Positions 24,180 through 56,583 of a stretch of DNA of 64,000 nucleotides are shown one piece after another. The stretch lies in the IMG/VR virus record IMGVR_UViG_3300027413_000002. The stretch is one strand, 5' to 3'. Source of the DNA: a virus. Position numbers and translations under genes: made by a program. Position 1 is the stretch's first letter. Each line of letters starts with the position of its first letter. The notes under the pieces are model-generated. The model was given only the letters and a program-made list of their open reading frames with translations, made no database searches and had not been told where the DNA came from.

Positions 24180-24195
24180 ACTCTATTTATACGAG

Positions 24196-41167: not shown

Positions 41168-41196
41168 TTGACTTTTTCCCACTAAATAGGTATAAT
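41168..41196 (+). promoter_or_regulatory. sigma70 promoter TTGACT-N17-TATAAT with a nested late-like ACTAAATA
   Basis: -35 at 41168-41173, -10 at 41191-41196, ACTAAATA at 41181-41188. Confidence 0.8.
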
Positions 41197-41203
41197 GTCT
41201 GTT

Positions 41204-41887
41204 ATGAAAACTATTTTTATGTTGCTGTACGGCAGCAAATATTCTTATAGAGATGTTAATAATATTGTTGACTCGACCAACGGTCAGGGGTATAATTATG
41301 TTCTGTATTGTGACTCTGCACCTAGTGGGTTAGACCCAAAGGTCAAGACAGTCACAGGAATAGACCCAGAGTTGGGAACATTCAATAAGGTGATGATGTT
41401 TGAAGGGCGTGATATAGATCAATGTTTATATTTAGATCTAGATGTCATCATTCAAAACCCAAATCTTGACGAATTCTTTGACGCAGGATTAGAAAGACCC
41501 ACCATATGTAAGACGTACTGGAAGCCAGAAGGTTTCGAAGCACATATCGGTGGTGGTGACTATAACTCTAGTGTTATTGCTTGGAGCAAAGGAAATGGGA
41601 GGTCGATGTTCACGCACTTCTCCGCAGACCCAGATAGATGGCTCGTACGATACCGAGATTGCGACGATAAATACTTATACCATATACACGGATATATCTT
41701 TGCACAGTTTCCCAAGGGCAGTATATACTCTTATGCATATGGTATTGATTATGAAACGGATACGAGTCCCAGAGGTAGGAAGCATCATAAGGGAGCAAGT
41801 ATCTGCCTGTTAAACGGTCAAGATAGACACGACTTCAATTTAAGGATTGATTACTATTCTCACTTTTCTGACGATAAAGTGGGGTGA
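41204..41887 (+). CDS. GT-A nucleotide-sugar transferase, paralog 1
   Basis: YGSKYS, YLDLD, YNSSVIAW, YSY. Start placed at 41204 because the 41195 ATG overlaps the -10 box. Confidence 0.75.
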   Translation: MKTIFMLLYGSKYSYRDVNNIVDSTNGQGYNYVLYCDSAPSGLDPKVKTVTGIDPELGTFNKVMMFEGRDIDQCLYLDLDVIIQNPNLDEFFDAGLERPTICKTYWKPEGFEAHIGGGDYNSSVIAWSKGNGRSMFTHFSADPDRWLVRYRDCDDKYLYHIHGYIFAQFPKGSIYSYAYGIDYETDTSPRGRKHHKGASICLLNGQDRHDFNLRIDYYSHFSDDKVG

Positions 41888-43247
41888 CAAATACTCTGCA
41901 GAGTATGTGAATAACCTTTATGGTATGATTGATGCGAACTATGTCAATCAATTTAGAATGGTATGTTTCACAGATGAACCCGATGGGATTCGGGAAGAAG
42001 TAGATATTCACCCTATCCCCGATGTTGAACCGCTACACCCAAAGTATTGGTTTGGCGAGGAGAACTATTGCTGGGATCGTTCCAAATTCCTTCTGTTCAA
42101 TGCACAAGAATGGCTCAATGATGTTGGTCCATTCTGTTATTTCGATTTAGATATTATCATACAAGACTCAATTGATGAGTTTTACGAACTTGCATTCCAA
42201 CCACATATCCTATATTCTCATTGGCAACCTGAAGGGCAGGTGAATAATAGAAGGTTTAGAGATATTCGTGGAACGTACTTCAACTCTAGCTGCATGCTTT
42301 GGTGGTCTGAACAACCGAAGAAAATATATGATGATGTCGTGAATAATCCAGATGTGTTCAAAGTATTTTACAAGGGTTCTGACAACTACCATCAGTGGAG
42401 AAGACCAGCTGGTAATGAATTCTGGAACTTCCTACCCGAAGAATGGTATTACAGTTACAATTACCAAGATACAAAATATGATGCCAAACTCGCTTTGTTC
42501 AACCAGAATTACATAACAAACGATGAGTCTATCTCTATTGAGGAGTTAGAAGATCCAGTCCTACTCAATCACTGGTACGGTAAATATGATATGTATAAGG
42601 ATGTCCCGACTCGAGTGGTTCTAGAACTATCAAACAAATACAATGACACTAAAAATCAATTCAACGATCTGTTCGTTGAAGACGACGAACTAACAATTGA
42701 AGATGTGAAGAGGATATTCAAAGATCCACCAGAATATGTTACATTACTCACAACACTCGCTCGCCCGAATCGGTGTAAAGATTATTTCAAAATTGTAGAA
42801 TGGTTCGAGCAACAGGGTACACAGGTGATACAACCACCACTAGATTTTGGTTTACACATAATCAATAAACTGGGGAGACCCATAGTTGAACAGGAAAAAG
42901 AACTTGTAACAAGAGAGAATATCAAGAAGTTTAAACAAAAAGAAGAATATAGGAATGTTACAAAAGAAGAAAAGTGGGTCATTGACTGTGAAGCCAGAAA
43001 CGACAATATGGTTTACATCAATGCAAAGGGAAATGTGTTCCCTTGTTCGTATATGGCGAGAGATATCCTAGAAAATAGACTATATCCACTTCATCCAATC
43101 GACTACCCATACAATCCTAAATACAATAACGCTAAGTCCTTCCCATTGAAGGATATTGTATATAATGCAGACTTTGATTGTTATAATGATAGTCTGAAGA
43201 AAGACCATTTGAAAATTTGTAAAGAGACTTGTGGAAGATGCGTGTAA
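41847..43247 (+). CDS. GT-A transferase fused to a degenerate radical-SAM and SPASM-like domain
   Basis: KWGDKYS, CFTD, FDLD, FNSS, GSDNY; C-terminal C...YINAKGNVFPC...CKETC. Confidence 0.72.
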   Translation: MITILTFLTIKWGDKYSAEYVNNLYGMIDANYVNQFRMVCFTDEPDGIREEVDIHPIPDVEPLHPKYWFGEENYCWDRSKFLLFNAQEWLNDVGPFCYFDLDIIIQDSIDEFYELAFQPHILYSHWQPEGQVNNRRFRDIRGTYFNSSCMLWWSEQPKKIYDDVVNNPDVFKVFYKGSDNYHQWRRPAGNEFWNFLPEEWYYSYNYQDTKYDAKLALFNQNYITNDESISIEELEDPVLLNHWYGKYDMYKDVPTRVVLELSNKYNDTKNQFNDLFVEDDELTIEDVKRIFKDPPEYVTLLTTLARPNRCKDYFKIVEWFEQQGTQVIQPPLDFGLHIINKLGRPIVEQEKELVTRENIKKFKQKEEYRNVTKEEKWVIDCEARNDNMVYINAKGNVFPCSYMARDILENRLYPLHPIDYPYNPKYNNAKSFPLKDIVYNADFDCYNDSLKKDHLKICKETCGRCV

Positions 43248-44038
43248 ATTTCGTCTGTGCTAAATGGGGCACAAAGTATGGTGCACACTTTGTCAATCGC
43301 CTATGTAACATGGCTCGTAGAAACTGCCCTGATCAGTTTGACTTTCACTTCTATTGTTACACTGATGACAGTGTGGGTCTTCAGTCTGATGTTAAGGTCA
43401 TCCCCTTTCCAGATATTCCTGATATTCACCCTAAGTATTGGTTCGGTTTGGACGATTACAAGTATGGAATGGCTCGCTGTTGGGATCGTGCAAAGACTTT
43501 CGTTTTTAATACCCATAATTTCGCAGACGATAAACCACACGGGCGTTTCGTCTTTCTAGACTTAGACGTTATCATTCAAAACGATCTAACACCAATCATC
43601 ACTTACAATATGGAGCAACCGACCAAGATGCGTTCTTGGTGGCAAGATCCAAGACCCATGGATACTCGTCGCTTCAAACTTTCCCATGGTGCATTCACAA
43701 ACGGAAGTTGTCAGGTTTGGAGTGACGACCAGTGTGAACCTATATGGAATGATGTATTAGAACATCAGGAAAAGATTTGGTTTACATTCACAGACGGCAC
43801 TGATAACTACCACAGCTGGAGATGGAAAGAGTTATGGGATTATTTCCCGAGTTGGATGGCATACTCGTACAACCGTGGACGCTCTTGGGATGAAGATGAT
43901 TTAAACGTAGGAATCTATAGAGAGAATTGTATTCTCTGCGTATTTAATGTAGACCTTTTACCATTTGAAGATGGATCTAGAGGTAAAACAAAACAAGACG
44001 AATTGGCAGACCCAAGATTACTGGAGCATTGGAAATGA
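43238..44038 (+). CDS. GT-A nucleotide-sugar transferase, paralog 3
   Basis: KWGTKYG, CYTD, FLDLD, NGS, GTDNY, YSYN. Confidence 0.78.
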   Translation: MRVNFVCAKWGTKYGAHFVNRLCNMARRNCPDQFDFHFYCYTDDSVGLQSDVKVIPFPDIPDIHPKYWFGLDDYKYGMARCWDRAKTFVFNTHNFADDKPHGRFVFLDLDVIIQNDLTPIITYNMEQPTKMRSWWQDPRPMDTRRFKLSHGAFTNGSCQVWSDDQCEPIWNDVLEHQEKIWFTFTDGTDNYHSWRWKELWDYFPSWMAYSYNRGRSWDEDDLNVGIYRENCILCVFNVDLLPFEDGSRGKTKQDELADPRLLEHWK

Positions 44039-44460
44039 AGATAGGACTCACTGCAAGCGCATTCGACTTACTACATGCTGGTCATGTTCAAATGTTAGAG
44101 GAAGCAAAAACTCAATGCGATTATTTGATATGTGCATTACACATAGACCCGAGTACCCAAAGATCAGAGAAAGGCAAACCTGTCCAGAATATGGTTGAGC
44201 GATACACGCAACTGAAGGCAGTGAAGTATGTCGATGAAATTATACCTTATGCGACGGAGAACGAGTTAGAAGATATCTTGGAATTATATCCGATCAATGT
44301 AAGAATAATTGGCGAAGAATATGAGAGATCTTCATTCACAGGAGACTGGATTTGCGATAGGAAAGGAATCGAAATATACTACAATAAACGAGAACATCGA
44401 TTCAGCACCAAACATTTACGCAAAAATATTCTATGGGCAGAATCGGATTTCGTTAGATGA
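44035..44460 (+). CDS. Cytidylyltransferase (TagD-like)
   Basis: AFDLLHAGH (HxGH), ERY.QL.AVKYVDEI, GEEY, REHRFST. Confidence 0.9.
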   Translation: MKIGLTASAFDLLHAGHVQMLEEAKTQCDYLICALHIDPSTQRSEKGKPVQNMVERYTQLKAVKYVDEIIPYATENELEDILELYPINVRIIGEEYERSSFTGDWICDRKGIEIYYNKREHRFSTKHLRKNILWAESDFVR

Positions 44461-45131
44461 ATATCTACACAGTGAAATGGGGAGACAAATACTCCTCTGA
44501 ATATGTAAACAAGATTGCATACGATATTGCAGCCGATTTCCCAGAGGCAGACCGCAAAGTATATTGTATAACTGACGACCCGACTGGTCTCAAAGACTTC
44601 ATTGAGCCGATACTTATACCAGAAGGAAATGATTTACAGAAATGGTGGAACAAAATGTATCTGTTCTCACCTCTGGTTGAGCAGGAAGGGGAGAAACTTT
44701 TCTTTGACCTCGATATTCTCATTCAACAGGACATAACTGTATTTGAAGAGTTCGATCCAGAAAACTGTCTTGGTATCGTAAAGACTTGGTGGCACGATAT
44801 TGAAACGATGCGCGAGGAAACCAAACACGTCCCGCATAAATTCAGCGACATAAACTCGAGTGTTCTGCGGTGGAACGATTCATTCGACAGTAAAAAGCTG
44901 TGGGAGTTCTTTGATAAATACAAGGAACAAATTATGTGGCACTATAGGGGAATTGATAATTTCCTTTGTGATAAAAACATAATTCCTATGAAGCTGTTTC
45001 CATTTGGTTGGGTCTATAGTTTCAATCAGGGTTATGTATATCCACAAGACACCGAGCGGCACGTCTATAGAGAAATGCCATATATTTGTTTATTTGATTC
45101 AATGGGAAAAAGTGAAGATGTTAAAATTTAA
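44457..45131 (+). CDS. GT-A nucleotide-sugar transferase, paralog 4
   Basis: KWGDKYS, CITD, WWNKM, FFDLD, INSS, GIDNF. Confidence 0.8.
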   Translation: MNIYTVKWGDKYSSEYVNKIAYDIAADFPEADRKVYCITDDPTGLKDFIEPILIPEGNDLQKWWNKMYLFSPLVEQEGEKLFFDLDILIQQDITVFEEFDPENCLGIVKTWWHDIETMREETKHVPHKFSDINSSVLRWNDSFDSKKLWEFFDKYKEQIMWHYRGIDNFLCDKNIIPMKLFPFGWVYSFNQGYVYPQDTERHVYREMPYICLFDSMGKSEDVKI

Positions 45132-45837
45132 GATGATTTTACCTCAAGCGATGATGACGATAGGTCAGCTTTTCATAATACCAGCAATCTGGTTTGTGGT
45201 TACAGCTGAGCATACGATGTTAGGTGTAATATCCTCTCTAGTAGCTTGTTTTGTATTCACCTGTTTAGGAGTAGCGGTAAGCGCACATAGATATTTTACT
45301 CATAGATCTTTTCGCATTTCTTACACGAAAGAAAAACTTCTATCTTTATTGGTTGTGCTGTCAACATGGCTGAGTCCATTTGAATGGGCTGCTGCTCATT
45401 GGCATCACCATAAACATTCAGATACTGAATTAGACACACATAGTTCGAAATACTTGGGTTGGAAAAATTGGTTTTTTGTTTTTCATAGATCATATGCAGC
45501 TGCACCTTCGGCAGTGTCAGCTCGTTTAATTAAAAAGAAATGGCATATGTTTTTGTTCAACAACAAATATTTTATTATATTTTCTTATGCATCACTGGTT
45601 TATTTACTTGGTGGTATGAATTATCTATTCTACTTATGGGTAATACCTACATCGCATGCATTTTTGGCGCAGATGATTACTGTAAATAACCACGTTAATG
45701 GTGAACCGAAAGACAGCTTTTGGCAAAATATAGTTACCCTTGGTGAAGGATATCATGCCCATCATCATGAATACCCTAAAAATTATGAAAAGGGGTTTAT
45801 TATAAAACCTATTGTGAAGGTAATAAAAGATGCTTAA
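45118..45837 (+). CDS. Second membrane fatty-acid desaturase-like protein
   Basis: HRYFTH, HWHHH, GEGYHAHHH; start probably at 45118 or the next ATG. Confidence 0.85.
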   Translation: MLKFKMILPQAMMTIGQLFIIPAIWFVVTAEHTMLGVISSLVACFVFTCLGVAVSAHRYFTHRSFRISYTKEKLLSLLVVLSTWLSPFEWAAAHWHHHKHSDTELDTHSSKYLGWKNWFFVFHRSYAAAPSAVSARLIKKKWHMFLFNNKYFIIFSYASLVYLLGGMNYLFYLWVIPTSHAFLAQMITVNNHVNGEPKDSFWQNIVTLGEGYHAHHHEYPKNYEKGFIIKPIVKVIKDA

Positions 45838-46498
45838 ATCTAATTTTTTAGCAAACTATAAGTTCTGGGGAGAGGCATTCTACTTTATTGAGAAGAAAGC
45901 ACCGCATAAAATATCTGACCTTCGTCAGTGTTTTGAACAGAACCATGTTGAGGCAGCAGAGTGGTTAGTTGAAGAACTACAGAAAAATATTGACAACTGC
46001 GCTAGACAAGAGAAGATTAAGGTATTGGTACTCAATTCGTGGTTGGGGATGCCTCTCGTCCCCCTCCTCTGCGAGAACCTCGATATCGGAGAGTTGCACC
46101 TAGTCGACTTAGACAAAGAGGCATTAGACTTATCCAAGATAATGCATAAACATTACTCTCAAGAGAAGTTTGTGAAGATTCGCCACCACAATCTAGACAT
46201 CCCATTTGCGTTTGACGAACTCAATAAGATTGACGCAGATGTTGTAATCGCTATCAACACCGAGCAAATGTATCCGCTCAAAGAACTTCAAACGAAGAAC
46301 CCAATGGCATTGTTTGCTTGTCAAAATAGTAATGTTATTGAAGAGATGTATGGTATCAACTGCGTAGACTCTATTGAAGACTTGAAAGAGCAGATTGATT
46401 TAGATGAGATATATTATTCGGGACAACGAGAACAAACATATTACTCGTGGGATGGACAAAAGAAATATGATCGATTTATGGTAATCGGATCTAAGTAA
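45830..46498 (+). CDS. Class I SAM methyltransferase-like protein (degenerate motif I)
   Basis: VLVLNSWLG, LVDLD, DVVI..NTEQM, RFMVIG. Confidence 0.5.
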   Translation: MLKSNFLANYKFWGEAFYFIEKKAPHKISDLRQCFEQNHVEAAEWLVEELQKNIDNCARQEKIKVLVLNSWLGMPLVPLLCENLDIGELHLVDLDKEALDLSKIMHKHYSQEKFVKIRHHNLDIPFAFDELNKIDADVVIAINTEQMYPLKELQTKNPMALFACQNSNVIEEMYGINCVDSIEDLKEQIDLDEIYYSGQREQTYYSWDGQKKYDRFMVIGSK

Positions 46499-47105
46499 GA
46501 TCCTCGATCATCATTTCCCACATTCCCTCATCAGGGATAACAAACCCCAGAGTAATTCTTGGACCACCACCAGCACAATGCCAAACTGGATCCTCTTTAC
46601 CGCCATAATATCCAACTTTAGCAGACCAACCTTTCCAATCGGGAAGAGTGTGGATTATTTCTCCGTCCCAAAACTGGAAGTATCCATCCCCAAGATTATA
46701 ATTTAAGAGAATATTATATCCAGGAACATCCCAGTTATTATGCCACCCCATAAATCCATCTTCTGGATAGTAGACATGAACAGCACTATGCCTTGCACCC
46801 AGATATTTAACAAGTGTGTCATTTAATCTCTGGGATTCTTTTTTGAATTTTTCTGGGGATCTAGCACCAACACCAAAGTGGGCATTACGAACAACTTCTG
46901 GTGGACCAGCGTGTTGCCCTTCTTCCTTACCCATTGTCTTTGTGAGCATTTCTGTGAGGTATTCATACGACTGAGAATGTTCAGCAGTAGAATCACCATG
47001 GTCGTCGATATAGAGTTCTGAGAGGTCTTGCTTAAAAAACCAATCACTATGTTCTTCAAGAATCTCTAGTATCTCAGTATTAAGGTCTATAAATTTCATT
47101 ACCAA
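46491..47105 (-). CDS. Cupin/2OG-Fe(II) oxygenase-like protein
   Basis: YYPEDGFMGWHNN ... WHCAG ... RITLGF. Confidence 0.55.
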   Translation of the reverse strand: MVMKFIDLNTEILEILEEHSDWFFKQDLSELYIDDHGDSTAEHSQSYEYLTEMLTKTMGKEEGQHAGPPEVVRNAHFGVGARSPEKFKKESQRLNDTLVKYLGARHSAVHVYYPEDGFMGWHNNWDVPGYNILLNYNLGDGYFQFWDGEIIHTLPDWKGWSAKVGYYGGKEDPVWHCAGGGPRITLGFVIPDEGMWEMMIEDLT

Positions 47106-47790
47106 TAATTCTCTCGGTTGGGATTGTATAGTGTTGTATAACAGCTTCCTCGCCCATCAACTCATCTTGTTTATAGCCTGTAACAAAATTCCATTTAGCG
47201 TCTGGTTGTGGAAACTCTCCTACTATAACATTAAAATTGCCATTAGTCAAGAGATTCCACATAGTAAATGTGTCCCACTTTCTAACTTCTTCTGGGTATG
47301 GAGAGGGATCCCATCGAGGATCGTTTTGTTCAAGATACCACCTATACCAACTATTCATCAAATCTTTGGTCGTTTCGGTTCTATATAAAAACAAACCGCA
47401 GTGATATATCATTTCTTCAGTTTCTGATAGTTTTGTTATTTTGGCATTGTATGGTCTGTTGCGCGTAAACAAAATATCACTATCACCAAGGAGATCAAAT
47501 ACTCCAGATATTTCCTCGCTGTTGATCAGAGTATCACAATCAACATATAATGTGGCGTCATAAGGAGACTTCGACAATGCCCAGAGTTTTGCTCTTATGT
47601 GATTCGGAACACCATCTGTTATAATCTGATCAAAGATCTCCCTCGCCTCATCACAAACCCAAGGTTCATGGGTGAACAAAGTTATCTTTGCTTCTGGAAA
47701 GAAATCTAAGAGGGATTGAGCGGATTGGAGTGCTGCTTGGTAAAATGCTTTGTTTACTGAAGCAACATAGACAAAACCATTACTCTTCAT
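47080..47790 (-). CDS. GT-A glycosyltransferase (GT8/GT77-like)
   Basis: GFVYVAS, RAKLWAL..SPYD.TLYVDCD (DxD), WDTF, KWNF. Confidence 0.75.
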   Translation of the reverse strand: MKSNGFVYVASVNKAFYQAALQSAQSLLDFFPEAKITLFTHEPWVCDEAREIFDQIITDGVPNHIRAKLWALSKSPYDATLYVDCDTLINSEEISGVFDLLGDSDILFTRNRPYNAKITKLSETEEMIYHCGLFLYRTETTKDLMNSWYRWYLEQNDPRWDPSPYPEEVRKWDTFTMWNLLTNGNFNVIVGEFPQPDAKWNFVTGYKQDELMGEEAVIQHYTIPTERIIGNEIYRP

Positions 47791-48235
47791 TTGCCAATGC
47801 TTCCTGTATCAACAGGGTAGCATAGGATTGGACCTCGATTGGCGTCTTTGCTTTTCTAAGACGCTTCTTCAGATCTCTGTTTGACGAGTTTTTGATTTCT
47901 TCGATCTCAAATGCTTCCAGCTTCATATTGAATAAGACTTCTTGTTTTTGACGAACCTTATCAGCTTCGTGGCGTTCACGATGAATCTGCTCTTGTCTTC
48001 GTGCTTCTTCTTTGTGTTTGGCAGTAGATTCGTCTAATGCCTCTTCACCAAAGATTTCTAAGATTTCATCGAAGTCTTTATTGACACCTCCAGATGCATC
48101 AATATGAACAACTGCATATTCGCCTGATAAAGTCAAACGCCTTGCAACAACTTGGCGATTGTTCTTATCTTTCCAGATAGGATCTTTCCAAAGTGGTGGG
48201 CGTTCTTTGTCTGATGATGATGCGATAACTTCCAT
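47780..48235 (-). CDS. Hypothetical protein (possible assembly chaperone)
   Basis: Charged helical C-terminus LFNMKLEAFEIEEIKNS; follows the YxG-repeat gene. Confidence 0.55.
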   Translation of the reverse strand: MEVIASSSDKERPPLWKDPIWKDKNNRQVVARRLTLSGEYAVVHIDASGGVNKDFDEILEIFGEEALDESTAKHKEEARRQEQIHRERHEADKVRQKQEVLFNMKLEAFEIEEIKNSSNRDLKKRLRKAKTPIEVQSYATLLIQEALANEE

Positions 48236-48268: not shown

Positions 48269-49324
48269 TTAGGCAGTTCTCATCCACAGCCGTTTAGACT
48301 CTTGAGTGCTTGAAGAACTTATGATGGTAAGACCGTTATATGTTCCAGCATAAGTACCGCTGTATGAACCAGTGTATGAACCTGCATAATAACCAACGTA
48401 ATATCCAGTATAGTAACCTGTATATACTGTCCCTATATATCCACTGAAAAATAGAGCATACGAACCTGCATAAGCCCCTGCATAAGCCCCTGCATACGCG
48501 CCTACATAAGATCCCGTATAAGTCCCTGTGTAAGACCCCGCATAAGCATAGGATGCTGTGTCTTTCATCTGGTCAGTCATGATCTCGCCCATTTGCTGCC
48601 ATGTCCCAGTTCCTGGAGCCGATTCAGCAAGAACAAATTTCCCAATATCATTGTCTTTAATTCTGTTTGCAACGCGAGCGAACAGACTTTCAATCTCAAC
48701 ATCTGTCATCTCTTGTAAAGAATTATCATCAAGTTTCTTGACGAGCCCAGTCCCTGAAACTCTAGTTGTATCGGTTGTTGCAGCAGTTTTTTGCCAGAGT
48801 GTTTTGGTGACGGTTGTTCCATCTACTTGGGTGTCAGAGATTGTTCCTCTGTTTGTCCAAGTTCCACCTGAAGGAGCAGAAGCAGAAAGGTAATACTGAC
48901 CAGCAGAAGTGGCTTGCTGTTCAACATATGAAGTGATCACTTCATCACAAATTTCTGTGTTTATTTCAGCGGCTGTCATTTCTAAAACATCACCGTCAGC
49001 ATTTACCCTTACTGGCGTTGTGATTGCTGAAGAGTTTGTAGTTTCGTTTTGATACATGGTATATGTATTTACAGTCGTAGATCCAGCAGATGTAGGGTGT
49101 GTACCAACCGCATCATTACGCTTTCTGTCTGTGAATGTTCCAATCGATGCATGGTTTGCGGGAACACTTCCTGTTGTGACATTCACAGAAGATGTTCCAG
49201 TATTAACAGATGCAAACTTCTCGAGTATTAATTGACCTGCGTACTGATACAACTCTGCTGCAGTCAATACCTGCAGACCCTGTTCTACGCTTCCCGAAAC
49301 TTTTACTTTTACTGGACCAGCCAT
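48269..49324 (-). CDS. Virion structural protein with a C-terminal YxG tetrapeptide array
   Basis: Thr/Ser-rich; about 15 YxGx repeats. Confidence 0.7.
   Translation of the reverse strand: MAGPVKVKVSGSVEQGLQVLTAAELYQYAGQLILEKFASVNTGTSSVNVTTGSVPANHASIGTFTDRKRNDAVGTHPTSAGSTTVNTYTMYQNETTNSSAITTPVRVNADGDVLEMTAAEINTEICDEVITSYVEQQATSAGQYYLSASAPSGGTWTNRGTISDTQVDGTTVTKTLWQKTAATTDTTRVSGTGLVKKLDDNSLQEMTDVEIESLFARVANRIKDNDIGKFVLAESAPGTGTWQQMGEIMTDQMKDTASYAYAGSYTGTYTGSYVGAYAGAYAGAYAGSYALFFSGYIGTVYTGYYTGYYVGYYAGSYTGSYSGTYAGTYNGLTIISSSSTQESKRLWMRTA
48332..48550 (-). repeat. 12-nt degenerate tandem repeat encoding YxGx
   Basis: For example CCTGCATAAGCC repeated at about 48465-48500. Confidence 0.9.
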
Positions 49325-49336
49325 TTTATATTATCC

Positions 49337-50377
49337 TTAATTTAATAGGTTGCCAGAAGAATCATAAAGAGCAATTGGTCTTAGCACTTCCCAGTTTTCT
49401 GCATCCTTACACACCAGAACCATCGAGGTTTTTGCTGGGAGATCTTTTGCAGCATTAGAAGAACCAGAGTCAACCTTATCCGAAGTATTTGGATAAACCT
49501 TGATATCGTTGGTTGTGGCGTTGTAGATTTCACATCTAAGACCAGTCGCAGCAGATTTTAACTTAACACCCTGCGCTGCAGAAGCAGTAGTCACGATATT
49601 GATTGTTTCTGTCAGCGCAGTAGCATCACCCTGAGCAGAACCAGCTGCAGTGATTGAAGCAGTGATACCATATTTCAGATCTCCTGAGAGAGTTGTAGTT
49701 CCTGAAATACTCAGTGAAGTGCCACCAATAGCACCTGCAGCACTCACAGTGAAGGTTGAACCATTTACATCAATACCACCATCAAGGGAAGAAAGACCAT
49801 CAACAGTCAATGTTCCCGAGGTGTCAATGTTACCTGTTCCGTCAGCAACAGTAAATGCACCATCAACATCAATACCACCGTCTAGAGAGGCAAGACCAGA
49901 AGCATCAATGGTTGTAGCAACAGTTGCGTCACCTTCATCCGTAGACTGCCATTGAGTCGCGGATACAGCAACAAAGTCACGACCCTTTTCTGGACCAAGC
50001 GATAGTGCAGCATTGGCAGAAAGGTCGTTGATAGACTCACCAGAATATGGGTAAATCTTGACAGTTACTGTGGTAGAATTAAAGATTGTTACACGTGTGC
50101 CTGCAGAAGCATCAAGAAGTTTTACCCCTTGGTTGGCACTTGCTGTGTTAATGATATTATACGTTTTGGTCAACGCTGTTGCATCGCCCTGTACTGTGCC
50201 AGCGGCAGTAACCGAAGCATCAACACCAACAATGAATCGACCAGATACTGTGATATCATCAACAACAACGTCATCACCGCTTTGGTATTTGTCGGTGTTT
50301 AAATTTGTAAAGTTTGAATCCACCTCTGTGTTAGTGAGGGGTGAGCCTTTACCTGAACGAGTTGTAAGTGTTGACAT
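49337..50377 (-). CDS. Fibre/baseplate-connector-like protein with a duplicated domain
   Basis: KGSPLTNTEVDSNF N-terminus; AS.TAAG..QGDATALT...QGVKL...K.YP twice; GL.SLDGGIDV twice. Confidence 0.65.
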   Translation of the reverse strand: MSTLTTRSGKGSPLTNTEVDSNFTNLNTDKYQSGDDVVVDDITVSGRFIVGVDASVTAAGTVQGDATALTKTYNIINTASANQGVKLLDASAGTRVTIFNSTTVTVKIYPYSGESINDLSANAALSLGPEKGRDFVAVSATQWQSTDEGDATVATTIDASGLASLDGGIDVDGAFTVADGTGNIDTSGTLTVDGLSSLDGGIDVNGSTFTVSAAGAIGGTSLSISGTTTLSGDLKYGITASITAAGSAQGDATALTETINIVTTASAAQGVKLKSAATGLRCEIYNATTNDIKVYPNTSDKVDSGSSNAAKDLPAKTSMVLVCKDAENWEVLRPIALYDSSGNLLN

Positions 50378-50383
50378 TTTTTC

Positions 50384-50584
50384 TTACCTATTTTTTAGAA
50401 TTACCTGAATGGCATCTTTAATTAATGCCAAGTCTTCTTTCAGACTATTTATATCGTCGCAAACTTCGTCTAGCTTCCTAGACTGATTTTTTCTTGCTTT
50501 ATATGCAGCCAAGCCCTCGGCATCATTACTCAATAGCGAGTTCGTGGCTTTGTCTCTAGTATATTTATCCGTATTAAAATCCAT
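50384..50584 (-). CDS. Small coiled-coil hypothetical protein
   Basis: RD..T..L followed by heptad repeats; typical after vrlC-like genes. Confidence 0.6.
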   Translation of the reverse strand: MDFNTDKYTRDKATNSLLSNDAEGLAAYKARKNQSRKLDEVCDDINSLKEDLALIKDAIQVILKNR

Positions 50585-50595
50585 TGCATTTTACC

Positions 50596-53500
50596 TTATA
50601 CTTGGAGAGCAATCGCCCTCAGATTTCTCAGCTGCGGAACATTTGACGTATTGTCAGTCATCAGAACAATCTTTACAGCGAACTCTTTGAAGTTTGTATA
50701 CGTTGTAGTTCCAAGAGTTGCTGTTGCAGTCGCGCTAGAACCACCGCCACCAGTTATAGTGATTGTCGGTGCAGCAGAAGAAGTTGAGTACCTTCCTGGA
50801 TCCGTGATAATAATCGAGGCAACCGCGCCACTACTTAGAACTGCAATACCCTTGGCTTGGCGAGTTGCTGTGCCACCAGAAAAAGTTACAGTCGGAGGAG
50901 TGGTATAAGATGAACCGCCAGCAGTAATCGCAGTTGCATCAACTCTCTTAACGGAATACTCTAAAGCATCACTGCTGTTGAGGTTTGCATTATCAATGGT
51001 ATATTTGGTTTCAATGAATTGAGTTTGAGCTAAACCTGCTGAATCAGGAACACCATCGTCAGTCATCTCAAACCAATTTAGCTCTTCTCTCAAGTTGGCA
51101 TCGTCTTCAGCAGCCAAGAACTTACCATAAACCTTAACAGAAGATCCGAATGGAGTCAGTTGGTCTAAGAAGATTTTTAAATCTTCAGCATCTTGCCCTT
51201 CAGATAGTCTGACTGTCTTAGAGATATATTTCGCAAGCGCAGAACCATTATTAGGATTAGTTTCATTTGTATCAGAATTATTGATCTTGTTCTGTGTAGT
51301 GATGAAACTACATCTGGATAAATCAATGACTGGACTTACGAACTTACTCTCAGTCGTGAATGTAGAGTTACTGTTGAAAGATTTAGCTCCACTCAGGTTA
51401 GCATCTTCATTGGACTTAGAGTATACTGCAAACTCTCTCGTAGTCTTTTGCTGCTCCATTTTAGTGATGATTCTTTCTACAGTTCCCTTGGTCGAGACAC
51501 CAGTAGATCGAGTTCCTGCATATTTGTGTGTCAAGTTTGTCTTCGGAAGTATCAACTCACCAAAGTTTAACTGAAGTTTGTTAAAGATCTTGTTTTCTAT
51601 AGAGGAAAGTGTTCCCTGAGAAGTTCCATTAGAAACGATATCTGCAACATCAAAGTCAGATTTTGTGAGTAGAACTCTCGCGACATCTCTTAGTGTAGAA
51701 TAGTTTTCAACAACACCTGTTTTAGTCGTGACATCAATTATACAGCCAGTACCAGAACCAGTTGTTGCAGATTGGGCGACATCTACTCCATCAGCAGTAA
51801 ACCCAGAACCCATGGAGTCAATTGTAAATCCAGTAACAGCACCAGTACTCACCGTTGTTACTTTAAGTTTGAGACCCGTTCCGTTGCCAAATCCAGCGAA
51901 GGTTATGACATTACCGACTGCGTGACCAGAACCACCATTATCAAGAGTTATGTCGAATGCGTGGAGGTTATCACCTGCTTGGAATTGACCAGCAGTGAAG
52001 TCCGTTAGTTGCAGATAGTCGATGGTGCTGTTAGTAAACTTAGCGACTCCATCAGTATCAGTAGTAAAGTTACAACGATAGATTCTGTGCATCAAATCTT
52101 CAGCTTGGATAGCATTCCAAGTTCTATTGTTTGACGACACGAACAGAACACCGCCCGAAACATCTTCGGCTACAATTCTTTGCGTGGTTCCAATTTTATT
52201 CTGACCCAGCTCAGATACATAGACCTCATAATCAGGGCTATTACCTTGTGGTAGAATAACGACACAATACTCTCGACCGCCCTCGAGGTATATTGGGGAG
52301 TCAAATGTGACGCCAGTAGTTGCATAACTTACTGTTCCATCTGCAAATTCAGTAGAGACACTTACATCAGAAGGAGAAAGATACTTTGAACCATAAGGAA
52401 CAACTCTGATTCCAGGATACCCATTGACCACTTCCCTTATCTGGATTGTGACCCCGTCAGTATCAGATTTTTTTCTAAAGAACAAATCAATTTTTGGACA
52501 GAATATACCTTCTTCTTCAGCAATCGTGAATGTTTGTGCAGTTGGATCGAATGCAGTCAAGTTGACATCTACAGCAAGGCTGGCGGTAACATCTTCAGTA
52601 CGAACATCAGTGACAATACTACCGAGCGTCTGTGGGTCTCCAAGGTTTGATCCAGTATTAAATGTCGGAACCTGCGTAGAAACAATCGTGCCTTGTTTAA
52701 CAGCGTCCAGACCAAACGAAGAATATGTTGCTTCAGCAGAGCTGGTTACAAATCCGTCTCGGTTCAGAACATCATCTACCATACGAAGAACTTTCTCTCC
52801 GATACGGAATCTTGACGCAGGAATTCTAAACTGACCAGCAATCCGACCCTCAGAGTCAGATACAATCGAAGCACCATATGCATTCGCGGTGTTGTTAAAA
52901 TCTGACCAGAAGTTGGTCGCGCCAGCAGCAAGTTGAGTAGTAAATGTCGAATAGGTTAGAGGACGACAATGATCAGAAACAGCATCGCCATCAAAGTAAA
53001 TATAAAACCTTGTATTTGGTTTTAATCGTGTGGCGTGGAATGTCACGTTCTGAGATCTCATGAATGGAGAGAACCCGATGTCGATAATTCGATCTCCATG
53101 ATTTTGAGTTACTGTTGTGGATCCAGTAGAAGCAATTGTCATGGTATTGACAGATTGACTAATCTGCGAAGATTCAACCACTTCGTTCATAGATACTTCA
53201 AAAGAAGCACTTGCGCTGGCGATTGACCTGTTCCCCTGCCCGCCACGGTCGCTGTCTGAATCAGACCCACTAAATGAAATTGGAGTTACCGTTGGCTCCA
53301 TTCCTGTCATCGTGGTCTCAACTCCATTCACGATACCAGCATTATTCAACGCACCTGTTACGTTCTCCAAAGCATCTGCAAGAGCATTATTTTCAACAAC
53401 TAAGTCACCACCATCTGCCATATTGACAAAGTTATCAGAAGCAGGATAGAGTTCGATGTCACCTTTGTAGTTAAACAAAAGAGAACCGATACAATTACGG

Positions 53501-56500
53501 AATTTAGAAGCATTGAGGTTTCTTTGATTGTCTACCAGTGTATATGGAAGAGATAGGATATTACCAGTTTTTGTGATTCCAGTAGAGTTTGTGCTATCAA
53601 AAACAACATCAACATTTTCTTCTAAGAAATTGGATGTCATAAATTTACGTCTGGTATCCATAGCAACATTATAATCTGGGTCTCTCAAATTACCAAGAGA
53701 GTGATCTCCGAAGCTATCGATGAAGATACCATTCTTAAATCTATCGTTGCCTGCTGCATCTGTGATTTTTAGACTCGCAGTATCTTTCTCAAGTAGATTC
53801 AGAGATGTGAAATATTCAAGGCGGTTGATGCGCTTTTCAATCGCACCAATATCTGCCATAGTGTAAACTCTGTTTTGTCTAGTAGTGACACTACATGCTA
53901 TATCCTTGCGACCTTGCACCTTACCGATGAATGGGGACACAGAAGGATATGGAGGAATTCTAACTGTTCCGATTTCCATCACAGTCACAGGTGCTACTGG
54001 TGGTCTTGGATCGGTTCTGGAAGCACCCTTGACAATATCGATATTACCTTTTTCAGAAATGGCGATTTTGTCAATTCGTGCGAGATAGTATTCAGCATCT
54101 GTTGTAAATGATTCTGTTGGGATCGGCATCTCATACCCACCAGCAATTGATTTCAAATCAAATGTTGGCAGTGGATTTTCAGTAGCACCAGCCATGCTTG
54201 TTGAGCTGGTTGCTGTATTGTTGACGTATGGACGGAAATCAATACAGTCTCTTAGATTGAAGAGACCCAGCTTCTTGGATCGGTACAGAGGAATCTCATA
54301 TGTGAAGATACCAGAACCGCCAGTATCGTCAACTGGGTATGAGTCAATCGCAAAATATGTACCAACAGAACCACCATAGTTTGGCTCTAGGTGTGAGAAC
54401 TTAACAACAATAAACTTTGATACAGTGCTTACTGTAGCTGATGGCTTTTTAATCAGTTTTGAGTGACCGTAGAAGTTATCTGTTTGACCGTTTTCCAAAA
54501 CAAACTGATCTTTATAGTCAGTACCAGTCTCAGAATATGCAGAACCGTCAACATAAACAGCTTCGACTTTAAAACCGTTGGGAATACCAAGGTTCCATGG
54601 TCCAACACTTGTTTCTTCATTTGTTGCGGTGTTAATCTTAACATAACGAGAGGTCAGAGCATTAATCGGTGTTGGCGTCACATCAGTTTGTTTTACTTTG
54701 AGTTTAATTATGGCGTCTGTGGCAGAACTCAAAGAAGTACCGATATCGATATTGATCGCTGTATTGCTTATAGAGGTGATCATAGCTGACGTCAAGCGGA
54801 ATGGCTCACCCGCTTTATAAGTTACACTATCTAATGTGCAGTCAGCTTGGAACACCATATAGAACTCAGTATCAAGTTGAGTTTGTGTTGGCGTTGTTGA
54901 ATAAGGAAACGTCTCAGTTCCTGTAACAGTAAGTGTTGTCGTGCCAGAAGTCGTAAATTCTGTGGAGAAATCTTTCTGGTATGTGTAGTTGTTATCAAAG
55001 GTATTACCAGTATCCGTTGCAAGAGTCTTGGCTGCAGAAAATGGAGCAGGGAATATGAGTTGATTAGAACTTGTTTCTTTAAGTACTGCCTTAGAACTTT
55101 CTAATACTGGGTCAGCAAATCCATTGACTGCATCGTCATCGTAGAAAATCGTTCTGATGTCAGCAAATGCACCACCAGTCATACGAATATCATAGAGATA
55201 TAAACGATATTTACAAGCAGCAGCATTCACTGTTCCGCTGTCATAACGGACTTGGCGAACACGTGCCTGACCAGTGATAGTAGAAGGTGCAGCGTGAACA
55301 GAGTAAGTGTTATCAGACGCAGCATTGGAGGCTGTTTCGCCAAATTTTACCAGATCGCCTTCTTTGATATTCCAGTTACCAGCAACCTCATCAACAATAA
55401 TGTAATTACCATATGTTGTAGAGACTGTGAATCCTTCTTCAACAACAGTCTCAGTTGCCTTTTCAACCTTGCTGTATGTAGGAGACTTAAACTCCCGACG
55501 ATATCCATTGACGTATGCAACACCTCTGCCGACACCAACAGCAATGTGATCAGCTGAACCACCGTCCGAGGAACTTTTTAAACCTCTATTAGACCCCGTG
55601 TCTAAATGCTCTCTCACAGAAAGTTCAAAGTTTGTGATTACATAGTTGCCACTCTCTTCTTTTGTTCTGTCAGCAAGTTTTCGACCCAGCTCGTTGTTTT
55701 CTTCCAGTCTTTGTACATCGCCACCTCTAGCCAGTAGTCCATCTTCAACTGTATACATAGAGATGAAATCAACATCATTTGCTTCAGTCAGACCAAGTTT
55801 AGCGATAGTCGTAGATGTTTTGTAGCGGTCGGCTCCAGGAGCATTAAAGTTAAACGTGCCTGTTGCTGGGTCATTAAGTGTTGTATCATCGTCTGATGTT
55901 ACCTTTGAATCGGTAAACTTAATACCAACAAACGAGTCAGCGTTCGTTTTATATTTTTCAAGACTAATATCTTGCTTATCGTGATATACAAAGTATCCAT
56001 CAATAAACAGGATACCTTCTTCGATTACAAAGTCAAGACCCTTACCGAAATAGTTTTTAGTTGCATCATTTGCATCTGTTCCGTTATCAACAACAAATGT
56101 GTCACCATTTCGTCCACCATCAGTCGATGATATAGTGAGGGTTTCACCAGCTTCAAAGTGTAAGTAAGCACCAGTGCTGCTTCCTTCAGTGTACTCGATA
56201 TATAATGTTTTCTTGTCTACGGCATCAGTGTCGAGACCAGTTGCAGTTTTAGAAATCTTACCCTTCAATCCACTGGTGCTGCCAGTTACAATATCACCGA
56301 CATAGTTGATCAATGTATCGTTGGATACACTAGCGGAAGACCCATCCAAATCATTGATCTTGATGAAGTCTCTGATCAGAGGTTCTCCACTACAACCCTT
56401 GACTCTTGCCCCATCATTAAACATATACCCAGCAAAATTACCGATTGTATCTTGCAGAATAGTTTGCATCTGTGTAAGTTCACGAGCCTGAACAGCGACT

Positions 56501-56583
56501 CCTGGTTTGAACAAGATTCGGGAAAATTTCTTCGCCTTATCAAAATTGTCAAAATATGGGCTTGTATTTAGATTGAGAGCCAT
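50596..56583 (-). CDS. Large virion structural protein (VrlC/DUF4815-like)
   Basis: LNTSPYFD, LFKPGVAVQARELTQ, APGADR, RT.EESGNY, YTMADIG.IEKRI..LEY.TSL.LLE, DP.AQTF, P.LRNLRAIAL. Confidence 0.85.
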   Translation of the reverse strand: MALNLNTSPYFDNFDKAKKFSRILFKPGVAVQARELTQMQTILQDTIGNFAGYMFNDGARVKGCSGEPLIRDFIKINDLDGSSASVSNDTLINYVGDIVTGSTSGLKGKISKTATGLDTDAVDKKTLYIEYTEGSSTGAYLHFEAGETLTISSTDGGRNGDTFVVDNGTDANDATKNYFGKGLDFVIEEGILFIDGYFVYHDKQDISLEKYKTNADSFVGIKFTDSKVTSDDDTTLNDPATGTFNFNAPGADRYKTSTTIAKLGLTEANDVDFISMYTVEDGLLARGGDVQRLEENNELGRKLADRTKEESGNYVITNFELSVREHLDTGSNRGLKSSSDGGSADHIAVGVGRGVAYVNGYRREFKSPTYSKVEKATETVVEEGFTVSTTYGNYIIVDEVAGNWNIKEGDLVKFGETASNAASDNTYSVHAAPSTITGQARVRQVRYDSGTVNAAACKYRLYLYDIRMTGGAFADIRTIFYDDDAVNGFADPVLESSKAVLKETSSNQLIFPAPFSAAKTLATDTGNTFDNNYTYQKDFSTEFTTSGTTTLTVTGTETFPYSTTPTQTQLDTEFYMVFQADCTLDSVTYKAGEPFRLTSAMITSISNTAINIDIGTSLSSATDAIIKLKVKQTDVTPTPINALTSRYVKINTATNEETSVGPWNLGIPNGFKVEAVYVDGSAYSETGTDYKDQFVLENGQTDNFYGHSKLIKKPSATVSTVSKFIVVKFSHLEPNYGGSVGTYFAIDSYPVDDTGGSGIFTYEIPLYRSKKLGLFNLRDCIDFRPYVNNTATSSTSMAGATENPLPTFDLKSIAGGYEMPIPTESFTTDAEYYLARIDKIAISEKGNIDIVKGASRTDPRPPVAPVTVMEIGTVRIPPYPSVSPFIGKVQGRKDIACSVTTRQNRVYTMADIGAIEKRINRLEYFTSLNLLEKDTASLKITDAAGNDRFKNGIFIDSFGDHSLGNLRDPDYNVAMDTRRKFMTSNFLEENVDVVFDSTNSTGITKTGNILSLPYTLVDNQRNLNASKFRNCIGSLLFNYKGDIELYPASDNFVNMADGGDLVVENNALADALENVTGALNNAGIVNGVETTMTGMEPTVTPISFSGSDSDSDRGGQGNRSIASASASFEVSMNEVVESSQISQSVNTMTIASTGSTTVTQNHGDRIIDIGFSPFMRSQNVTFHATRLKPNTRFYIYFDGDAVSDHCRPLTYSTFTTQLAAGATNFWSDFNNTANAYGASIVSDSEGRIAGQFRIPASRFRIGEKVLRMVDDVLNRDGFVTSSAEATYSSFGLDAVKQGTIVSTQVPTFNTGSNLGDPQTLGSIVTDVRTEDVTASLAVDVNLTAFDPTAQTFTIAEEEGIFCPKIDLFFRKKSDTDGVTIQIREVVNGYPGIRVVPYGSKYLSPSDVSVSTEFADGTVSYATTGVTFDSPIYLEGGREYCVVILPQGNSPDYEVYVSELGQNKIGTTQRIVAEDVSGGVLFVSSNNRTWNAIQAEDLMHRIYRCNFTTDTDGVAKFTNSTIDYLQLTDFTAGQFQAGDNLHAFDITLDNGGSGHAVGNVITFAGFGNGTGLKLKVTTVSTGAVTGFTIDSMGSGFTADGVDVAQSATTGSGTGCIIDVTTKTGVVENYSTLRDVARVLLTKSDFDVADIVSNGTSQGTLSSIENKIFNKLQLNFGELILPKTNLTHKYAGTRSTGVSTKGTVERIITKMEQQKTTREFAVYSKSNEDANLSGAKSFNSNSTFTTESKFVSPVIDLSRCSFITTQNKINNSDTNETNPNNGSALAKYISKTVRLSEGQDAEDLKIFLDQLTPFGSSVKVYGKFLAAEDDANLREELNWFEMTDDGVPDSAGLAQTQFIETKYTIDNANLNSSDALEYSVKRVDATAITAGGSSYTTPPTVTFSGGTATRQAKGIAVLSSGAVASIIITDPGRYSTSSAAPTITITGGGGSSATATATLGTTTYTNFKEFAVKIVLMTDNTSNVPQLRNLRAIALQV

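Follow-up and report, generated by a model that had tools for sequence, protein, structure and literature searches.

The subject of this analysis is a gene of the IMG/VR virus record IMGVR_UViG_3300027413_000002, of which a stretch of 64,000 nucleotides (nt), here called the window, was analyzed. The gene encodes a protein, here called the YxG protein, in which a tract of Tyr-x-Gly-x units leads up to a short hydrophobic center and away from it again. Translation of the open reading frame (stop codon at 48269-48271) gives 351 amino acids (aa), and the start, M-A-G-P-V-K, is conserved in the family. The parts of the gene are as follows.

48269-49324, minus strand: whole gene, a 351-aa protein of the virion module, from the open reading frame call (more than 745 homologs at 90% clustering; 479 representative clusters at 50% clustering)
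48551-49324, minus strand: residues 1-258, N-terminal strands and helix, blades 1 and 2, and the start of blade 3 (structure prediction, fold search, and blade alignment)
48461-48550, minus strand: residues 259-288, the N-arm or outgoing strand, YA plus seven units of aromatic-x-G-x (sequence; predicted strand E249-293)
48425-48460, minus strand: residues 289-300, the tip YALFFSGYIGTV, with its turn at S294-G295 (column profile, 64 tip variants, and structure prediction)
48332-48424, minus strand: residues 301-331, the C-arm or returning strand, eight units of aromatic-x-G-x (sequence; predicted strand E296-349; covariation with the N-arm)
48272-48331, minus strand: residues 332-351, the return strand that closes blade 3, L-T-I-I-S...K-R-L-W-M-R-T-A (predicted with a local confidence of at least 90; aligns with blade 2)

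A preliminary description, made from the letters of the DNA, had reported seven YxGx units, a center, and eight more units at 48332-48550 (Y259-G331), and this layout is confirmed by translation and by shuffling. The seven units of the N-arm run without interruption through residues 261-288 (48461-48544), preceded by YA, and the eight of the C-arm, counted in full, occupy residues 301-332 (48329-48424). Between them, the 12-residue center YALFFSGYIGTV fills exactly three period-4 slots, so that it is no break in the pattern and the whole stretch can be read as 18 units in one phase. When the protein was shuffled 20,000 times with its composition kept, runs of units reached 3 at most, versus the 7 and 8 observed, and no second such array was found in any frame of the window; the feature is real and statistically overwhelming. 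Tyr makes up 29% of the array and Gly 23%, with Thr and Ser besides and almost no Leu, Ile, or Val, and a look for His or another metal motif in this composition found none (no His-x-His). The 12-nt DNA repeat that encodes the units is degenerate (copies 60 to 87% alike; 67 to 74% matches in Tandem Repeats Finder), and no inverted repeats were found in the array. The symmetry is therefore a property of the protein only and not a DNA palindrome.

Among homologs, the array was delimited between a conserved T-W...D-[TQ] anchor and a C-terminal L-[WF]-x-R anchor, and the turn was placed by a center-motif score that is independent of position. Defined in this way, the two arms are exactly equal in 49 of the 63 homologs outside the training group, versus about 2.4 of 63 expected by chance if the center could fall at any unit. 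Equal arms were found in 114 of the 132 unique arrays with a placed turn, loci included, at 22 different lengths from 7 to 135 residues. Several of the 18 unequal arrays are anchor errors, and the remainder are off by one or two units. The repeat numbers of the two arms thus co-vary across homologs, as the preliminary description had proposed to check. Close homologs have array lengths that fall on 79 + 8n, and a graded series of homologs carries 0, 1, 2, 3, and so on units per arm around an unchanged tip motif. Six-residue units are also mirrored about the turn, where G-A-K-T-Y and G-T-S-A-Y occupy the same level on opposite arms, and a mirror autocorrelation of the Tyr and Gly positions fits the Y-opposite-G and Y-opposite-Y registers alike. 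Such arm symmetry is an unusually clean evolutionary constraint, in that two separate repeat tracts must change together.

Covariation between the arms was analyzed in 54 distinct arrays with arms of 35 and 35 residues, taken from proteins 43 to 92% identical to the query (the YxG protein of the window). Column pairs that join the two arms away from the turn were ranked by mutual information with average product correction, numbering Y261 as 0. All ten of the top pairs lie on the anti-diagonals i + j = 66 or 68, for which 23 of 182 pairs qualify (hypergeometric p ~1e-10), and some of the top covarying pairs are 60 residues apart. Of the top 20 pairs, just 4 fall on the best pair of parallel offsets, and separate groups with arms of 55 and 59 residues show the same anti-diagonal peak. 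The sums 66 and 68 are tied, which puts the center of symmetry at S294 or G295. Covariation occurs at even sums only; this is the signature of strands and not of a helix, and it places the variable x positions of both arms on one face and the Tyr and Gly positions on the other. The covarying residues are complementary in size (Y or F opposite A or T; N opposite T).

The column profile agrees with such a two-faced arrangement. Tyr and Gly positions are near-invariant, with entropies of 0.27 and 0.13 bits, and are almost never charged. The x positions have entropies of 1.6 to 1.8 bits, tolerate charge, and hold mostly Thr, Ser, or Ala with some Asp, Glu, Asn, or Tyr (56 to 67% Thr/Ser). A tip motif, Y-x-[LAPR]-x-[YF]-[SGN]-G-[FYS]-x-[GN]-x-x-[YF], is common to 64 tip variants and is kept even in homologs that have no YxGx units at all.

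AlphaFold2 (AF2), run on the query as a monomer with a 53-sequence alignment, gave a model with a mean predicted local distance difference test (pLDDT) score of 85.5 and most of the body above 90. In it, the array is a single long hairpin of strands E249-293 and E296-349, with residues 294-295 (S294-G295) as the non-strand residues between them. A homolog with 59-residue arms gave the same topology, with the break at the S-G of its own center. An AF2 monomer had been named beforehand as a check, and it returned a hairpin (arm pLDDT 57 to 66), not disorder or a parallel helix. With symmetry, covariation, and AF2 behind it, the core proposal of the preliminary description, that matched arms around one center form a long antiparallel hairpin with a tyrosine ladder and an aromatic FFSGY tip, is strongly supported.

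The recurrence of Gly at every fourth residue might instead bring to mind a glycine-zipper (GxxxG) helical hairpin made of two membrane-inserting helices, all the more so as Pfam gives a sub-threshold match to Rick_17kDa_Anti and PF13441 is listed on two homologs. The match scores 17.3 bits versus a cut-off of 24.2, which leaves the protein outside both the Glycine zipper 2TM (PF05433) and YMGG (PF13441) families. A Tyr/Gly/Thr/Ser composition with almost no Leu, Ile, or Val, cross-arm covariation confined to even sums, AF2 strands, and 135-residue arms that far exceed the thickness of a membrane make this explanation hardly credible.

The body that carries the array consists, in the AF2 model, of three repeats of a short strand, a hairpin, two short strands, and a helix. 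With the array removed, blades 2 and 3 align with each other (z = 8.1), which shows the array to be inserted at the tip of the third blade's hairpin; blade 1 is weakly similar (z = 3.1). Blades 2 and 3 share the motif S-A-P-x-G-(x)-T-W ... [ST]-D-[TQ] ... L-W-x-[KR]-T-A, and the C-terminal strand (residues 332-351) aligns with T-K-T-L-W-Q-K-T-A of blade 2. In this pseudo-threefold body, the array is an outgrowth of hairpin 3, and because it lies inside a blade hairpin of a folded domain, both of its ends must return to the same place. This likeness among the blades, in the region 48575-49200 on the minus strand (residues 41-262), indicates an ancient internal triplication.

An exhaustive search with VIA-align, in which a Z of 8 is the level for clear meaning, was made with two models. 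For the query model, the top five matches were all MABP-type beta-prisms of perforin-like proteins (Plu-MACPF, Mp2Ba1, the MVB12B MABP domain, perforin-2 P2, and MPEG1; Z 3.8 to 7.2), and the next match, an unrelated one, had a Z of 2.9. The second model gave the same first four (Z 5.6 to 7.5), with the next match at 2.2. The Z values in the two models are 7.2 and 7.5 for 2qp2_A, 7.1 and 7.4 for 8b6v_A, 6.1 and 6.7 for 3tow_A, and 5.7 and 5.6 for 6sb1_A, and these four matches cover 112 to 124 aligned residues with root-mean-square deviations of 3.2 to 6.0. Foldseek found nothing at an E value of ≤1e-3 in PDB or BFVD, and a search of the ESM Atlas returned only unnamed viral clusters. Judging from the models, the body is probably an MABP-like pseudo-threefold beta-prism; the assignment is probable and not proven because a Z of about 7 is below the level at which VIA-align scores carry clear meaning.

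The insertion also bears on two further ways to read the repeat, a parallel trimer (either a gp5-like triple beta-helix or a collagen-like one) and a disordered, FUS-like Tyr/Gly adhesive, in which the center would be a degenerate unit. The T4 gp5 helix has a V-x-G-x-x-x-x-x repeat, of which the 8-residue double unit is reminiscent, and [GS]-Y-[GS] motifs occur in phase-separating domains. Neither a parallel trimer nor a disordered chain, however, requires a conserved midpoint turn at 22 lengths or antiparallel covariation, and an array set into a blade hairpin has ends that must meet. The array differs from gp5-type and collagen-like repeats in reversing its chain at the midpoint, in its antiparallel covariation, and in a period of 4 and not 3, and we regard both readings as very improbable. 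The parity of the covariation, the midpoint turn, and the insertion in a folded blade led us to reject the helical glycine-zipper, parallel triple-helix, and disordered readings.

Homologs of the YxG protein come almost all from marine metagenomes and range in length from 290 to 1489 aa. Pfam, searched with the 351-aa protein at an E value of ≤0.01, gave no family, just two sub-threshold and unrelated matches, and a PHROGs search gave no match. A tblastn search of 50,697 phage records with the full protein found nothing at an E value of ≤1e-3, and a megablast search with 14 kb around the gene found no match. When the same phage records were searched with the body only, a single weak match (E = 0.03) appeared, and it proved to be real. 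Phage C48C1 (Kyanoviridae; OQ984149.1, 141011-151054) encodes the protein in question, 3347 aa long and annotated only as hypothetical, which has the same N-terminal prism body, C-terminal strand, and downstream gene trio as the query. Its repeat region, of 3061 aa, is largely Arg-rich (Y-x-R-x-R-x-S-x) and is interrupted by a non-repeat region of about 330 aa that starts at the midpoint and by four more globular inserts in the C-terminal half. In sum, this is a large, unannotated family that can be described as an extended hairpin on a probable beta-prism or as a putative phage host-recognition appendage.

The preliminary description had also suggested that the 12-nt repeats could change the length of the needle by slippage, and for short timescales this part was not borne out. 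In nine clusters at 90% identity, array length is identical in all full-length members that could be delimited, with one exception, and slippage-driven polymorphism is accordingly rejected at the population level. Arms of 35 and 35 residues are retained by 54 distinct arrays, in proteins whose identity to the query goes down to 43%. The exception, P0317 (in the 90% cluster of P0085), is encoded on a 1518-nt contig and has a 22-aa deletion confined to the array, which may be a rare asymmetric allele or a collapse in short-read assembly.

As to its surroundings, the window belongs to a T4-like myovirus, with genes for a sheath, large terminase, portal, scaffold, and major capsid protein, and it also encodes gp6-, gp7-, and gp8-like baseplate proteins. 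In its major capsid protein, it shares 70% identity with Pelagibacter phage HTVC008M and 67% with the OM43 Melnitz phages. Around the YxG gene, the order is gp8-like, 1995 aa, 66 aa, 346 aa, YxG protein, 151 aa, 236 aa, and 204 aa, and this order recurs widely: among 77 IMG/VR loci, the 1995-aa gene was found in 70 and the 346-aa gene in 64, and the counts for the genes downstream are given below. The 1995-aa protein (50596-56583, minus strand) matches phrog_358 (E = 0), and the YxG gene cluster begins right after it. From its position and size, this protein is probably VrlC, which in the pelagimyophage papers is the proposed gp7 substitute of a double-layered baseplate. The YxG gene lies where those phages have their "host recognition cluster" (HRC), as defined in PMC7029224, that is, after a VrlC-sized gene and among fiber and glycosyltransferase genes of a pelagimyophage-like genome. 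It is part of the late baseplate and host-recognition operon, and the baseplate setting supposed at the outset fits the gp8-like and VrlC-like synteny.

Three genes downstream of the YxG gene overlap one another, and a promoter-like word stands at the other end of the run.

47780-48235, minus strand: small helical protein of 151 aa, a candidate assembly chaperone, directly downstream (73 of 77 loci, and C48C1)
47080-47790, minus strand: 236-aa glycosyltransferase, GT-A or GT8-like, overlapping the 151-aa gene (71 of 77 loci)
46491-47105, minus strand: 204-aa protein with W121-H122-x-N124 ... H176 ... R183, last gene of the conserved run (69 of 77 loci)
50446-50453, minus strand: TATAAATA, T4-type late-promoter-like, about 70 nt upstream of the 346-aa gene

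A family search with the 151-aa protein gave no match; going by its position, it may be an assembly chaperone, as is common for fiber genes. The 236-aa family matches PF01501 in 12 of 28 homologs (best E = 2e-5), with the copy in the window below threshold (E = 0.05), and a profile search of this protein against PDB sequences returned nothing useful. In the 204-aa protein, W121, H122, N124, H176, and R183 are invariant across 22 homologs. The spacing resembles the H-x-D...H...R of 2-oxoglutarate oxygenases, but Asn replaces the acidic ligand, and no Pfam or PDB sequence match was found, a profile search included. The trio (46491-48235, minus strand) persists in loci that lack the remainder of the convergent glycosyltransferase island (41195-46498, plus strand), and it resembles a cassette devoted to the assembly or modification of the YxG protein.

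It is also conceivable that the array is above all a modification scaffold, whose regular Thr, Ser, and Tyr hydroxyls the GT8-like transferase and the H-x-N protein would glycosylate, perhaps following oxidation, to give a glycan-coated rod. The linkage of the YxG gene with the trio (69 to 73 of 77 loci, and C48C1), its independence of the island, the PF01501 matches, and the Thr/Ser content of the x positions all speak for such a role. The pelagimyophage literature, on the other hand, sees these GT8 enzymes as altering the surface of the host (PMC7029224), and the 204-aa protein belongs to no recognizable family. We rate this explanation as decidedly unlikely, and it is compatible with a hairpin stalk, the two not being mutually exclusive. 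The conserved glycosyltransferase partner raises the possibility that phage fibers are glycosylated in this group.

Our favored reading, which is probable though well short of certain, is that the YxGx array is a length-setting, two-stranded hairpin stalk on the prism body, with the conserved tip directed toward the host. The array would form a long two-stranded antiparallel beta-ribbon that emerges from the third blade hairpin of an MABP-like beta-prism. The Tyr and Gly residues of both arms would come together on one face as a Tyr/Gly zipper, leaving the variable positions on the other, and the [SGN]-G turn would bear an aromatic or hydrophobic tip (F-F-S-G-Y-I in the query). The array would then act as a rigid spacer in which an equal number of units on both arms sets how far the tip reaches from the virion. 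Reckoned at ~0.33 to 0.34 nm per residue, that reach would be about 12 nm for 35-residue arms and 2.4 to 46 nm across the symmetric members. The most likely contact of the tip, and possibly of the Tyr strip, would be the host envelope (lipid, lipopolysaccharide, or polysaccharide). Probing of a membrane or receptor by the tip, as the preliminary description had it, is suggested here by analogy with a single case, the MABP hairpin of MPEG1. The body being itself a pseudo-threefold prism, the protein could work as a monomer.

Several points weigh against this reading. The turn was not confidently placed in 93 of 225 unique arrays, and the giant C48C1 relative, with its globular inserts, is clearly no simple symmetric hairpin. 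A free two-stranded ribbon of at least 40 nm would be unusual. The AF2 confidence in the arms is low, that at the tip is just 43, and the distal part of the 59-residue-arm homolog is at about 40. The fold match falls short of the tool's level for clear meaning, and Pfam gave no MABP match at the sequence level. The mutual information statistics carry no correction for phylogeny, their controls being parallel offsets and shifted diagonals only; shared ancestry gives no expectation of an anti-diagonal pattern.

Low confidence in a monomer is usual for strands that need partners, and this is one of the grounds for seeing the array as an assembly element. Two, three, or six copies would interlock their hairpins by the Tyr/Gly faces to make a multi-stranded needle or fiber shaft, or the hairpin would dock along another fiber and leave the prism body as a distal ligand-binding part. 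A near-invariant Tyr/Gly strip on one face would be sticky if exposed, and beta-prism and MABP domains are binding modules. T4-type baseplate fibers are oligomeric, and in the needle at the tip of the T4 long tail fiber, the gp37 chain runs out along a thin beta structure and back (PMC6957217). The YxG chain runs out and back in the same sense, as judged from equal arms, antiparallel covariation, and the AF2 hairpin. The gp37 needle, which is six-stranded, is an obligate trimer, with seven iron ions bound by His-x-His motifs and a head domain at its end, and both of its chain ends are said to lie at the base (reportedly Bartual et al. 2010). The YxG array, in contrast, has no His, and so neither His-x-His nor another metal motif, and it ends in a tight [SGN]-G turn where gp37 has a head. 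Among relatives, the arms differ in length about 20-fold with the body and the neighbor genes constant, a range that would be hard to reconcile with a fixed socket, and the tip motif is conserved even where units are absent. We think an assembly element unlikely, while giving it serious weight.

For the stalk, the closest parallel is the MABP domain of MPEG1, in which an "extraordinary elongated" beta-hairpin projects from the prism and binds lipid through a hydrophobic and basic tip (PMC6753088). The likeness, as far as the models go, would lie in the body fold and in one blade hairpin that is extended and, in the YxG protein, has an aromatic tip. The differences are the lack of sequence similarity, the helix in each blade of the YxG body, and the hairpin itself, which in the YxG protein is a period-4 Tyr/Gly repeat and far longer, at 7 to 135 residues per arm. 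The YxG protein, moreover, belongs to a phage structural module and is no part of a pore-forming toxin.

Aromatic cross-strand zippers are known from Trp-zipper hairpins and from the "aromatic rescue" of Gly by a cross-strand Tyr or Phe. In these as in the YxG array, aromatic residues and Gly alternate on one face of an antiparallel pair, and a Tyr ring could cover the neighboring Gly. The known cases are peptides of 12 to 16 residues or single pairs in sheets, whereas a YxG strand repeats the motif as many as about 33 times. Tyr/Gly/Thr/Ser-rich repeats are also found in the beta-solenoids of ice-nucleation proteins, which have a stacked Tyr ladder (PMC9247515). These are bacterial outer-membrane proteins built of 16-residue solenoid coils, unlike the YxG array in having no midpoint turn or arm symmetry.

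Among the hosts of pelagimyophage-like phages are some of the sea's most abundant bacteria. The proteins by which these phages recognize their hosts are essentially without annotation (PMC7029224), and here is a family of hundreds of clusters, syntenic, and without a Pfam or PHROG entry. It appears to offer phages a novel means of making a host probe of adjustable length. If the stalk model is true, there is a readable sequence rule, units per arm giving tip reach, that could be related to the thickness of host envelopes across metagenomes. The array would also be a natural, very long, self-registering beta-hairpin with a 4-residue code, of interest for protein design. More speculatively, the family may stand for a new appendage principle, a single-chain Tyr/Gly-zipper ribbon of digital length with an aromatic tip that probes membrane or glycan, a dedicated 151-aa chaperone, and decoration by the GT8-like and H-x-N oxygenase-like enzymes; this we offer as a possibility about which we are doubtful. 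Were it true, ribbons in the giant relatives could be far longer than 46 nm.

The 346-aa gene (49337-50377, minus strand) heads the run of 346 aa, YxG protein, 151 aa, glycosyltransferase, and 204 aa, and its product, which gave no family match, may be a partner of the YxG protein. It has an internal duplication of two similar units of about 100 aa, which carry T-A-A-G-[ST]-x-Q-G-D-A-T-A-L-T and D-G-G-I-D-V motifs. Copies of the T4 late-promoter word TATAAATA number 18 in the window, versus 2.6 expected, with 17 of them on the minus strand, the strand of the window's structural genes, and the copy at 50446 is likely to be the promoter of the YxG operon. Minus-strand sites are found, for example, at 24184, 26241, 31375, 34222, 39049, 50446, 56712, and 58719.

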